Assembly: GCA_016707895.1 (NCBI GenBank) | Contig: JADJGV010000034.1 | Span: forward strand, 501,625-565,624 | Reading direction: 5' to 3' | Source: Myxococcales bacterium | GTDB lineage: Bacteria; Myxococcota_A; Polyangia; Haliangiales; Haliangiaceae | DNA length: 64,000 nucleotides | Shown: positions 6,829 to 15,884 of the stretch, in pieces | Layout of the letters: the number at the start of each line of letters is the position of its first letter | How positions within the stretch are numbered: position 1 is the first letter of the stretch | Notes under the pieces: model-generated | Databases searched by the model: none | Told to the model about the DNA's origin: nothing | The model's input: only the letters and a program-made list of their open reading frames with translations | Program-made: the position numbers and the translations under genes

Positions 6829-9800
6829 GTGGCTGAGCGCACCAGCACCGTGACGACGTGGGCGCTGGCCCGCGAGCTGCCGTCGGGCGCGACCACGTGG
6901 GCGCCGGTGGTGGCGCCCGAGCTGTGCGCGTTCGGCGACGGCGACGCGCCGGCCGACGAGCTGCGCGTGTTCCTGGCCGAGCACCTGGCGACCGCGCCGG
7001 CGGCGCAGGTGGCGCGGTACTTCGTGCCGGCCGGCCCTCGAGGTGGTGGCGATCGCGGTGCCGCTGGCGCCGGGGGCGCCGACCAAGCCGCGGGCGCCGC
7101 GCGACGTCGAGGTCACCTGCGTGCTCCTGCCGTACGGCCCCGAGGGCCGCGATCGCGTGGCGCTGGTGCCGGCGCTCGATGCGGCGTTCTTCGTCGATCG
7201 CAAGGAGGAGGTGGGCGAGGTGGCGCGGCGCGAGATCGCGCGGCTGTGCGCGGCCAGCGGCCTCGACGGCAACGCCTGGCGCCGCCTGCTGCCGCCGCTG
7301 GCGGCGTCGATCGAGCCGCTCGAGGTGCTGGTGCGGTTCGCGCAGGCCGAGGTCACCGGCGCCGATCGGGTCGCGGCCGAGGAGCGGCGCCGGGCCCGCG
7401 AGCGGCTCGAGGCCCACGCGGTGCCGCTGGCCGATCGGGTGCGCGGCGGCGGCGCGGCGCTGGTCGGGCGCGATCGCGAGCTGGCGTCGATGACCGCGCT
7501 GCTGGGCGGGCGCGAGCGGCTGGCGGTGCTGGTGTGCGGCGACGAGGGCGTCGGCAAGACCGCGATCGTCCTCGCGTGGGCCCGGGCCCAGCCGCAGCGC
7601 GCGGCGTGGGTGACGTCGGTGGCGCAGCTGGTGGCCGGCGCGTCGGGCTTCGGCGAGGCCGAGGCCCGGGTGGCCGACCTGTTCGCGGCGGCCGAGCGGC
7701 TCGACGCGGTCTTGTGCTTCGACGACTTCGGCAGCCTGTTCCGCGAGCGGGTCGAGGACGGCGGCCTGGGCCTGACCGCGATCGTGCGCCGGTTCATCGT
7801 CGACGCGCGGGTGCGGGTGGTCGCCGAGATCACGCCGGCGGCGCTGGAGCGCGCCGAGCGCCGCGAGGTGGCGCTGATCGGCGCGATGACCCGGCTGACG
7901 GTGCCGGCGATGGACGCCGCGGCGACGCTGGCGGTGGTGACCGGGCGCGCCGCGCACTGGCGCCGCGCCGACGCGCGCCGGCCGCAGCTCGCCGCCGCGG
8001 CGTTGTCGGTCGCGGTCGAGCTGGCGCGGCGCTACCTGCCGTACCGCGCGTTCCCCGGCAAGGCGGTGACGCTGCTCGACGATCTGCGCGCCGCGGCCGA
8101 CGGCGAGGTCGGCGCCGACGGCGCGCCGCGCGAGCTGGGCCCCGACGCGGTCTACGACGGCTTCGCCGCGGCCACCGGCGTGCCGGCGTTCCTCTTGCGC
8201 GACGATCGGGCGCTGCTCCTCGACGAGCTGATCGCCCGGCTGCGCACGCGGATGATCGGTCAGGAGGCGGCGGTGGCGCGGGTGGCCGAGACGCTGTGCA
8301 CGGTCAAGGCGCAGCTGCAGCCGGCCGACAAGCCGCTGGCGACGTTCCTGTTCGTCGGGCCGACCGGCGTCGGCAAGACCGAGCTGGCCAAGAGCCTGGC
8401 CCACCTGCTGTTCGGCTCCGAGGGGCGGCTGGTGCGGTTCGACATGAGCGAGTACGCCGATCCATGGGCGGCCGAGCGGCTGATCCGCGGCAGCGACGCC
8501 GGCGAGGGCCTGCTGACCGCGCGGATCCGCCAGCAGCCGTTCGCGGTGGTGCTGCTCGACGAGATCGAGAAGGCGCACCCGGCGGTCCACGATCTGCTGT
8601 TGCAGGTGGCGGGCGAGGGCCGGCTGACCGACGCCCGCGGCCGCACCGCGTACTTCCACAACGCGATCGTGATCCTGACGTCGAACCTCGGCGCCCACGG
8701 CCGGGCCGCGGCGATCGGCCTGGCGGTCGGCGCCGGCGACGACGATCGCGCGCGCGAGCTGGCGCGCTACCGGGCCGCGGTGACCGAGGCGTTCCGCCCC
8801 GAGATGCTCAACCGCCTCGACGCGATCATCCCGTTCCATCGCCTCGACGCCGCGCAGATCGCCGCGGTCGCGGGGCTGGCGCTGGCCCAGCTCTCCGAGC
8901 GGCGCGGGCTGGTCCAGGCCAGCATCACGCTCGACGTCAGCCCGGCGGCGGCGGCGGCGCTGGCGGCCGGCGGCTACGCCCCGGCCTACGGCGTGCGCGC
9001 GCTGCGCCGCCACCTGGATGAGGCGGTGATCGCGCCGGCGGCGCGGCTGGTGGCGCGGCTGGGCAAGGACGCCCACGGCGCGCTGCTCGCGGTGCGCACC
9101 GTCGACGAGCCGGCCGCGGTCGACCTGCCGGCCGGCGCGCACCTGGGCACCACCGAGCCCGAGGCCGGCGTGGTGGTGGCGGCGTGGCGGCGCGGCGGGG
9201 CCGGCGGTCGCAAGAACGCCCGCGGCGCGCTGGCGGTGGCGGCGGTGCGGCGGGTGGCCGACACCTGGATGCGCCACGACGTCGCCACCGAGGTGAAGAC
9301 CCAGATCGCGTGGCTGAAGTCGCAGCTGGCGCGCGGCGCGGCGCAGCCCGGCGGCGCGCAGGCCGGCAAGCGCAAGAAGGCGGCGCTGTCGAGCGCGCAG
9401 GTGCAGCAGATGAGCATCGAGCTGGCGCGGCTCGAGCGGGCGTGGGACGCCGCGGCCGCGGCGCAGGAGGACCTGGCCGCCGCCGAGGAGCTGGCGATCG
9501 CCGCGGCCCAGGCCGGCGACGACGTCGAGGCGGCGGTGGCGATGGCGGGGCCGCTCGAGGACGCGTTCACGACCGCGATGTTCTGGCTGGCGGTGGCGCG
9601 GCGCGAGGATCGCGACGAGATCACGCTGACCTTGTCGGCGCCCGAGCACCCGCGCGCGCTGGGCCGCTGGGTGACCGGCATGCTCGAGCTGGCGGCGGCG
9701 CGCGGCTGGACCGTGCACGCGCACCCGACGGTGGCCAAGGAGCCGGCGCCCGACTGGCCGCTGGCCCGGGTGTGGGGGCCGCCGCGATCGCGGGCGTGGC

Positions 9801-15884: not shown

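Follow-up and report, generated by a model that had tools for sequence, protein, structure and literature searches.

Several described systems lie close to the locus that we analyze here, a triplet of Clp/Hsp100-type ATPase genes (g1, g2, and g3) at positions 6829-15884 of a 64,000-nucleotide stretch of a Myxococcales bacterium genome (contig JADJGV010000034.1; hereafter, the window). Among bacterial release factors (RFs), RF1 and RF2 insert the histidine of a core motif into the stop codon; PrfH keeps GGQ and lacks domain 1. Hetero-hexameric AAA+ ATPases of the Pex1/Pex6 type are assembled from obligately co-occurring two-tier paralogs whose first tier (D1) binds ATP without hydrolyzing it and whose second tier (D2) is the motor. 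In bacteria, the rescue and quality control of ribosomes are thought to rely on transfer-messenger RNA (tmRNA), ArfA/ArfB, RqcH, and peptide-cutting release-factor paralogs, with AAA+ proteases thought to act only later, on released and tagged chains. In eukaryotes, Vms1 is a release-factor-like partner of Cdc48 (PMC6514570). ClpI of the Actinomycetota, as presented in the title and the start of the abstract of its description, is a lineage-restricted class of Clp unfoldase with atypical modules that was defined bioinformatically (PMC10149685). We found no description of a fusion between a Clp/AAA+ ATPase and a release factor in the literature that we searched, and no family library names the proteins of the triplet.

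The triplet shares some features with each of these systems and departs from all of them. Like ClpA, ClpC, and ClpE, its proteins combine two AAA+ tiers without a long M-domain, an AAA_2-type D2 with a D2-small domain, and a hydrophobic-G-F/L tripeptide after sensor-1; unlike them, they carry a private N-domain in place of Clp_N, a D1 without the catalytic Glu and Arg fingers, and a C-terminal RF-like module, they lack the Tyr of GYVG in g1 and g3, and they come as three obligate paralogs. Their best D2 match is to ClpB of Thermus thermophilus (207 bits), and g2 and g3 keep the D1 pore-loop Tyr in the AG..Y.G context of ClpB/Hsp104, but the M-domain, Clp_N, an active D1, and a heat-shock context are missing, and a tripeptide of the ClpP-loop type and an RF-like domain are present. 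With RF1/RF2 and PrfH, the triplet and a single-gene sister family share the fold of domains 1 and 2/4, the E-x-G-x-H-R motif (in g1), and a sequence-detectable PCRF domain (in the sister); in contrast to RF1/RF2, the triplet has no GGQ domain 3 and seems not to keep the PxT/SPF loop, and its module sits at the C terminus of an AAA+ motor. Pex1/Pex6 is eukaryotic, consists of two paralogs rather than three, and has unrelated N-domains and no RF-like module, and the co-assembly of the triplet is putative. In Vms1-Cdc48, which serves eukaryotic ribosome quality control, a ribosome-binding module of release-factor type is likewise coupled to a two-tier AAA+ unfoldase; Vms1, however, is a separate and active protein of the archaeo-eukaryotic eRF1 fold, whereas the module of the triplet is of the bacterial RF type, dead, and fused, and a functional analogy between the two would be speculation. 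ClpI belongs to another phylum and is a single gene, and no release-factor-like domain is mentioned in its title or at the start of its abstract (PMC10149685).

Profile scores likewise place the three proteins outside the described Hsp100 subfamilies that we tested, as the original prediction had proposed. The NCBIfam models of ClpB, ClpA, ClpV, ClpK, and ClpG matched them at 190 to 315 bits against equivalog cut-offs of 885 to 1900 bits (ClpB, TIGR03346, 282-315 against 1232; ClpA, TIGR02639, 261-287 against 993; ClpV, 215-230 against 885), and neither the window nor the related loci that we examined contain type VI secretion (T6SS) genes. Membership in ClpV/T6SS, ClpK, or ClpG was rejected on these scores and on context. 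The predicted absence of the Clp N-domain and of the ClpB M-domain also holds: Clp_N (PF02861) matched none of the three proteins, and the M-domain can be called absent because the ClpA model, which itself lacks one, aligns without a length difference (g1 residues 112-665 onto ClpA 158-714), whereas the ClpB models match in two separate stretches.

Release-factor-like modules on a Clp-type motor

Three consecutive plus-strand genes fill positions 6829-15884, with a G+C content at third codon positions (GC3) of 0.97-1.00 in their frames. We called genes by GC3 and a codon-usage score because the high-GC window (72-80% G+C) is full of long spurious open reading frames (ORFs).

6829-10252, plus strand: g1, with N-domain, degenerate D1, active D2, and RF-like C-domain; 1140 aa after correction of a 1-nt frameshift
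10249-13617, plus strand: g2, 1122 aa, with the architecture of g1; protein P0121 is 100% identical
13614-15884, plus strand: g3, 756 aa, with N-domain, D1, D2, and D2-small, and without the RF-like domain
9197-10249, plus strand: C-terminal RF-like module of g1 (g1C), a helical domain 1 and an alpha/beta domain 2/4, with no GGQ domain
9887-9907, 9923-9937, and 10037-10051, plus strand: the g1C motifs E-x-G-x-H-R-F, ESPCH, and VEREY, respectively
12616-13614, plus strand: C-terminal RF-like module of g2 (g2C), with no GGQ domain; motifs EHGTHFF (13273-13293), EPEVYRVEV (13309-13335), and LLPAVRTL (13447-13470)

The prediction of three consecutive paralogous genes for two-tier Clp/Hsp100-type ATPases was borne out, the coordinates of g2 and g3 exactly. 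So were the stop/start overlaps, by the gene coordinates: the GTG start of g2 overlaps the stop of g1 in GTGA (10249-10252), and the ATG start of g3, with GGAG located 10-13 nt upstream, overlaps the stop of g2 in ATGA (13614-13617). A recent duplication or assembly repeat was considered and rejected, the paralogs being 43-46% identical in D2 and 27-30% in D1 and each having its own orthologous family.

The long C-terminal domains of g1 and g2, which had been described as of unknown function, are release-factor-like by fold. AlphaFold2 models built from 83-85 homologues reached a mean predicted local distance difference test (pLDDT) score of 94.2 with a predicted template modeling score of 0.91 for g1C and a pLDDT of 89.8 for g2C, and in both a helical bundle is followed by an alpha/beta domain. 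With g2C as the query, the first 43 Foldseek matches were all release factors (best E value, 3.6e-6). g1C and g2C have the RF1/RF2-like fold, domains 1 and 2/4, with the GGQ domain missing; residues ~64-120 of g2C were modeled with low confidence and are probably disordered. The RF-1 domain was not detected, and in motif tables of 56-59 orthologues per paralog, out of ~120 gathered for each, GGQ occurs at chance level (1 of 56 g1 and 2 of 59 g2 C-domains). As the triplet has no GGQ domain 3, no peptide release would be possible.

Across the orthologues, g1 retains L-E-x-G-x-H-R-F (E and G at 100%, H and R at 92%) followed by P-C-H, and we take its E-x-G-x-H-R(-F) to be the release-factor core motif. 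The g2 family keeps E-H-G-T-[WH], E-P-[DE]-V-V-R-V-E-V, and N-P-D-x-L-L-P-V-T-R-T-L-T-Y, the last presumably reminiscent of the IRTYNF strand of RF domain 4. At the position of the stop-codon-reading tripeptide, g1 has only x-P-C-H after H-R-F and g2 has E-P-[DE]. The sequence-level resemblance to PCRF is weak yet in register: Pfam PCRF scored 12.8 bits for g1C (E value, 0.11), below its gathering score of 24 bits, and did not match g2C; a g1C profile searched against PDB sequences reached RF2 at E values of 0.7-0.8; and hhalign joined both modules to the single-gene sister family (E values, 7.5e-4 for g1C and 0.018 for g2C). Between g1C and g2C, hhalign detected no sequence similarity (0.4%) despite their common fold. 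The net charge of the RF-like domains (-3 to -7) is uninformative, canonical RFs being likewise acidic.

By profile search, the g1C module is private to this family. Its profile matched 231 cluster representatives among 1.84 billion, and the full-length proteins are ~1030-1220 aa long with the match in the last ~300-350 residues. The one exception (P0382, 1741 aa) carries the g1 C-domain in mid-protein, at residues 849-1153; possible explanations are a fusion of g1 with g2 and an indel that led to read-through.

The sister family gives the same combination in simpler form, a single gene for 880-913 aa with D1, an AAA_2 D2, D2-small, and PCRF and with no N-domain (for example, L087:6831-9554). 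Its PCRF scores 61-65 bits against the cut-off of 24, its alignment to RF2 passes over residues 240-319 (the GGQ domain), and, like the triplet, it has a D1 Walker B without D-E, a nonaromatic D2 pore loop, and S/A-I-G-F after sensor-1. About a dozen metagenome contigs (L086-L096) carry this stand-alone form, at 54-100% identity over D2 and PCRF. Because the sister family has both a Pfam-significant PCRF and the peculiarities of the triplet, the fusion of a Clp-type motor with a GGQ-less release factor is real and detectable in sequence. Two related versions of it exist, of which the triplet is more derived, with an added N-domain, three paralogs, and RF modules that have diverged in g1 and g2 and are wanting in g3. 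Just upstream of the sister gene in L086, L087, and L094 lies a conserved-looking ORF of ~121-126 aa with no Pfam match.

One further protein, P0026 (L085:10001-13243; GCA_002344285.1), joins a g3-like N-terminal half to D2-PCRF. Its PCRF is Pfam significant (57.8 bits), and it matches RF2 in the PDB at an E value of 1.9e-16 with RF2 residues 240-319, the GGQ domain, cleanly skipped. We considered it as an evolutionary bridge and dropped it as probably a chimeric contig: L085:11440-14444 and L086:2258-5269 share 99% identity, the contigs part ways upstream of this last 3 kb, at P0026 residue ~480, L086 encodes a stand-alone protein of 905 aa in its place, and only the stand-alone form recurs.

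ATPase tiers, tripeptide, and N-domains

Each protein has a weak D1 (PF00004, AAA_lid_9), an AAA_2 D2 (PF07724; E values, 1e-37 to 1e-40), and ClpB_D2-small (PF10431), with the following motifs.

7460-8242, plus strand: D1 of g1; Walker A GDEGVGKT (7538-7561), pore loop GFGEAE (7646-7663), Walker B FDDF (7718-7729), no Arg fingers
8330-9052, plus strand: D2 and D2-small of g1; Walker A (8357-8380), pore loop GSDAGEG without an aromatic (8489-8509), Walker B LLDEIEKA (8552-8575), sensor-1 TSN (8678-8686), IGL (8714-8722), Arg finger NRLD (8810-8821), sensor-2 (8990-9010)
10891-11688, plus strand: D1 of g2; Walker A GRPGSGRA (10960-10983), pore loop QYFGDWE (11104-11124), Walker B FDDL (11179-11190)
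11785-12495, plus strand: D2 and D2-small of g2; Walker A (11812-11835), pore loop DRFTPDG (11944-11964), Walker B (12007-12030), TSN (12133-12141), IGF (12166-12174), NRID (12247-12258), GAR (12427-12447)
~14226-15008, plus strand: D1 of g3; Walker A GEAGVGKT (14313-14336), pore loop TYLGMWQ (14439-14459), Walker B FADRL (14511-14525)
15090-15782, plus strand: D2 and D2-small of g3; Walker A (15117-15140), pore loop VGGGASS (15249-15269), Walker B (15309-15332), TSN (15435-15443), VGF (15468-15476), ARLD (15540-15551), GAR (15720-15740)

The two tiers differ in what they have kept. In D1, the Walker A consensus G-x-x-G-x-G-K-[ST] is kept across orthologues, Walker B reads [DE]-D (g1, g2) or D-R (g3) in place of D-E, as had been predicted for the window, and the Arg-finger positions (ClpB R331/R332) are occupied by G/A, E/A, and D/A and never by Arg; we predict from these motifs that D1 binds nucleotide without hydrolyzing it. 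The prediction of a canonical Walker A in two paralogs and GSGR in the third stands for the window; as a trait of g2 it does not, since the Lys is present in 83% of g2 orthologues and its replacement by Arg is limited to the window's clade. In D2, the Walker A Lys, the D-E of Walker B, the sensor-1 Asn, the Arg finger, and the G-A-R of sensor-2 are invariant in all three families, which marks D2 on motif grounds as the motor tier. The canonical pore-loop Tyr of D2 (GYVG) is absent from the triplet; only g2 has an aromatic at that place, which is W in 86% of its orthologues and F in the window, and the pore-loop Tyr of D1 is kept in g2 and g3.

The original prediction saw no ClpP-docking loop; this is not supported, given a conserved [ILVA]-G-[FL] tripeptide 10-13 residues after the sensor-1 Asn of D2 in all three families. 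It reads [LI]-G-[LI] in g1 orthologues (Gly at 96%), P-I-G-F-G in g2 (94-100% conserved), and x-G-F in g3 (G at 100%, F at 98%, the first residue mostly Ala). Its position falls within ~3 residues of ClpA IGL 617-619 and ClpE VGF 602-604; the segment of g2 can be aligned gap-free to ClpA 591-664 and needs a single gap against ClpE 577-649. This motif-level match suggests a tripeptide of the ClpP-docking type; no clpP gene turned up either in the window itself or at any of the related loci that we examined.

N-terminal domains precede the ATPase tiers of all three proteins.

6829-7339, plus strand: family-specific N-terminal domain of g1, ~170 aa, aligned by hhalign to those of g2 and g3
10249-10743, plus strand: N-terminal domain of g2, ~165 aa
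13614-14123, plus strand: N-domain of g3

That these are one paralogous domain, as proposed, is weakly supported for g1 with g2 (hhalign, 89%) and g1 with g3 (81%) and is not supported for g2 with g3 (1%). Searches of Pfam (15 family members), NCBIfam, PADLOC, and PDB profiles returned nothing significant for the N-domain, the Pfam and PDB-profile result resting on the paralogous g2 domain as the query; at most, its start gave the impression of a HicB-like beta-beta-alpha arrangement.

Conservation and possible function of the triplet

When one genome per species was scanned with a pattern, relatives appeared in 236 species, of which we surveyed the best 80, assigning ORFs to g1, g2, and g3 by hidden Markov model (HMM) classification. 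All 80 are uncultured metagenome-assembled genomes (MAGs), nearly all labeled Myxococcota (Kofleriaceae/Haliangiales, Polyangiales, Nannocystaceae, "Myxococcales," and "Deltaproteobacteria"), with a few labeled Proteobacteria, Acidobacteriota, or "bacterium." The synteny search suggested with the original prediction gave a clear result: wherever the contig suffices, the order g1-g2-g3 on one strand is kept in nearly all 80 loci. The g1/g2 overlap is -4 nt in 50 of 64 loci, and the g2/g3 overlap is -4 nt in 24 of 64, the remainder mostly overlapping otherwise. Flanking genes are conserved within clades only, and distant lineages have unrelated neighbors, for which reason we regard the triplet itself as the functional unit. 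The setting is one of clade-wide conserved, housekeeping-like synteny (PdxA, Crp, transglutaminase) and not one of variable islands, and it looks chromosomal and vertically inherited, unlike a defense island. This old, conserved, and translationally coupled triplet fits co-assembly of its products. Departures in number also occur: a Polyangiales contig (L081:9995-13459) has a solo g2-like gene beside a DUF444 gene, with no g1 or g3, and two loci have an extra divergent g3-like gene upstream of the triplet (L074:2187-4490, L077:2230-4557).

We are highly confident of the anatomical statements on the triplet. What the proteins do is a more tentative matter. Because the genes are coupled, are universally retained together, and have lost features in a complementary way, we propose that g1, g2, and g3 would co-assemble into one hetero-hexamer, for example, 2:2:2; gene order and overlaps display the obligate co-occurrence and coupled expression of paralogs that are expected of hetero-hexameric motors, and the paralogs are specialized, with an aromatic D2 pore loop only in g2 and RF-like domains only in g1 and g2. 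In such a ring, D1 would be an ATP-binding tier for assembly and substrate contact, and D2 would be the sole motor. The dead RF domains would serve as targeting arms in the A site or decoding center of a stalled, vacant, or terminating ribosome, releasing no peptide, and the ring would pull on a polypeptide or factor bound to the ribosome; should the [ILV]GF loops bind ClpP, the substrate would be handed to ClpP for degradation. The chain as a whole, a hetero-oligomeric, D2-driven unfoldase of the Clp type, possibly coupled to ClpP and sent to the ribosomal A site by dead RF domains, is in our judgment possible and somewhat short of probable. The fuller statement, that uncultured Myxococcota have a ribosome-docking hetero-hexameric Clp machine that is the fused bacterial counterpart of Vms1-Cdc48, along with a simpler single-gene sister, we hold to be rather doubtful. 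If true, it would mean a different logic of rescue, with a mechanical or proteolytic attack made directly at the ribosome, as Cdc48 does in eukaryotes. Quite apart from that reading, a Clp ring built of three obligate paralogs and with a dead D1 would be new, a rare bacterial hetero-hexamer like Pex1/Pex6 and the proteasome; the GGQ-less module would add a member to the repertoire of release-factor domains; and a second family, encoded by one gene and carrying this fusion too, opens the idea to tests in more than one system.

Several observations weigh against a ribosome-directed unfoldase. The stop-codon-reading tripeptide (PxT/SPF) appears not to be retained, the likeness of g1C and g2C to PCRF is marginal by the Pfam and hhalign E values given above, and no ribosome- or translation-related gene neighbors the operon in the window or in the loci that we examined, the neighbors varying by clade. 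The RF-like domains lie on the D2 (exit) side, an awkward place from which to thread a chain held by the ribosome into the entrance at D1; a ring in which no more than a third of the pore loops of D2 would bear an aromatic argues against a strong processive unfoldase; the g3 tripeptide, mostly A-G-F, is atypical as a ClpP motif; and ClpP binding and hetero-oligomerization are read from the tripeptide and gene order. The main rival is a general or regulatory unfoldase or protease of the Clp type whose RF-like domains were exapted as a scaffold, an auto-regulatory plug of the D2 face, or a dock for an adaptor or small protein and would never bind the ribosome. RF2 binds ArfA, a precedent for the docking of a small protein. 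In favor of exaptation are the apparent loss of the recognition tripeptide, the loss of the GGQ domain, a sequence far from PCRF, the lack of translation genes in the neighborhoods examined, and a g1C profile that finds only this family among the 1.84 billion representatives, as a fast-evolving private domain would. It sits poorly, however, with the complete arrangement of RF domains 1 and 2/4 in two paralogs and the sister family, with the 92-100% conservation of the E-x-G-x-H-R core in g1, and with a sister-family PCRF that is still plainly RF2-like, and we consider it on balance a doubtful account.

The remaining rivals concern how the proteins assemble and what they serve. The paralogs might form separate homo-hexamers with tasks of their own, co-expression being all that the operon provides; from the sister family it is clear that an ATPase of this kind can function from a single gene, and the solo g2-like gene of L081 points the same way. 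The strict g1-g2-g3 order, the 4-nt overlaps, universal co-retention, and complementary losses (of the pore-loop aromatic, the RF domain, and, in the window's clade, the g2 Walker A Lys) make separate rings unlikely. A cytoplasmic motor for a membrane protease, extracting or delivering substrates in the manner of an FtsH in pieces, is brought to mind by the largest clade (clade C), in which a gene for an Rce1-like CAAX/CPBP intramembrane protease (PF02517, ~250 aa) lies directly upstream of g1 in 33 loci, its stop overlapping g1 by exactly 4 nt in 30 of the 33; the CPBP-containing loci of clade C include L024, L027 (gene at L027:4409-5164), L030-L032, and L035-L045, among others. We find this very improbable, since tblastn finds no CPBP gene in the window, the window's clade and the loci of Polyangiales and Nannocystaceae lack it as well, and we noticed no membrane anchor in the ATPases. 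A role in antiphage defense or conflict, with translation, a common battleground, being sensed or attacked, is suggested by the PADLOC matches to DolB, PDC-M37B, and mad8 at 57-98 bits, but these matches are limited to the generic AAA_2 module of D2, no effector domain was found, and the clade-wide conserved synteny described above is housekeeping-like; this is the reading that we hold to be extremely unlikely.

The g1 frameshift and the surroundings of the operon

The original prediction treated g1 as one continuous gene of ~1140 aa and in so doing silently crossed a frameshift, as 6829-10252 spans 3424 nt, which is not divisible by 3.

6829-~7035 in frame 1 and 7043-10252 in frame 2, plus strand: g1 as written in the window, split, with a longest intact ORF of 1069 aa
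7035-7037, plus strand: a CCC run with one extra C, found by DNA alignment to two near-identical MAG contigs that have CC
6743-6828, no strand: the divergent intergenic region of 86 bp between a 434-aa gene (5438-6742, minus strand) and g1, presumed to be a putative promoter region for the triplet

Codons 1-69 of g1 (6829-~7035; GC3, 0.99) lie in frame 1 and the remainder in frame 2. Both near-identical contigs (L004, GCA_943370995.1; L005, JAEUJY010000060.1) have CC at the site and an intact g1 of 1139 aa, whose sequence equals the frameshift-corrected translation apart from eight differences in scattered places, a gap of one residue among them; P0241, also intact at 1139 aa, is 99% identical to the corrected g1, and the NCBI gene call for the intact L004 orthologue agrees with a start at 6829. 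A programmed +1 frameshift in the style of prfB was rejected, since the relatives are merely one C shorter, the site has neither a stop nor a slow codon, and the other orthologues are all encoded in one ORF. Split genes in five other MAG loci of the family (g1 in L022 and L058, g2 in L023 and L050, g3 in L044) suggest that indel errors are frequent in these high-GC assemblies, and the extra C is most likely an assembly indel. That the frameshift is genuine, with g1 a pseudogene and the operon decaying in this genome, would agree with the presence of the extra C in the window's own DNA and with the single-nucleotide polymorphisms that separate the window from L004 and L005 as a distinct assembly or strain. 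Against decay, the extra C sits within a homopolymer, GC3 is 0.97-1.0 on either side of the site with no additional defects, and splits of this kind, typical for assembly indels, recur in the five loci just named; we regard a pseudogene as quite improbable.

Upstream of g1, the divergent 434-aa gene is unannotated and is followed on the same strand by genes for a Big_5 protein and an alpha-2-macroglobulin (A2M). The original prediction had associated the triplet with the A2M genes; the adjacency is lost in relatives, and we rejected the linkage on that ground. The A2M gene itself (1-4194, minus strand) runs off the start of the window, the plus-strand ORF at 10-3369 (1119 aa) is a high-GC artefact, and the gene call in L004 joins the A2M and Big_5 parts into a single protein of 1815 aa. 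Downstream, a convergent LysR gene abuts the stop of g3 with its own. Loci of the window's clade have an RNase_T-family gene upstream and a Pkinase-FHA-TPR-PilZ block downstream of the triplet, the latter only in this clade (L001, L005-L007, L009, L016), and we treat it as synteny and not as a functional link because it is so confined. In the window, the Ser/Thr kinase, FHA, TPR, and PilZ proteins are encoded at 17472-22580 (minus strand), followed by MgsA (22768-24084, plus strand). In clade C, a Crp/cNMP-binding regulator follows g3 at a gap of 26-130 nt, an arrangement not found in the window.

Elsewhere, no tRNA or tmRNA genes and no Rfam families at gathering score were found in the window (1-64000). 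A Tn5/DDE-type transposase gene (31573-32892, minus strand), with a coding score of 98 against 150-800 in its neighbors, sits between a cyclic di-GMP block (24482-31465; HDOD, FIST, a hybrid histidine kinase, and a response regulator with GGDEF and EAL domains) and a mevalonate/isoprenoid operon (33094-40155, minus strand). The latter encodes squalene/phytoene synthase, HMG-CoA reductase, GHMP kinases, diphosphomevalonate decarboxylase, an FMN-dependent dehydrogenase, and a UbiA prenyltransferase. The TRAP transporter block that follows (40273-45233, minus strand) has a G+C content of 0.67-0.70, clearly under the window average.

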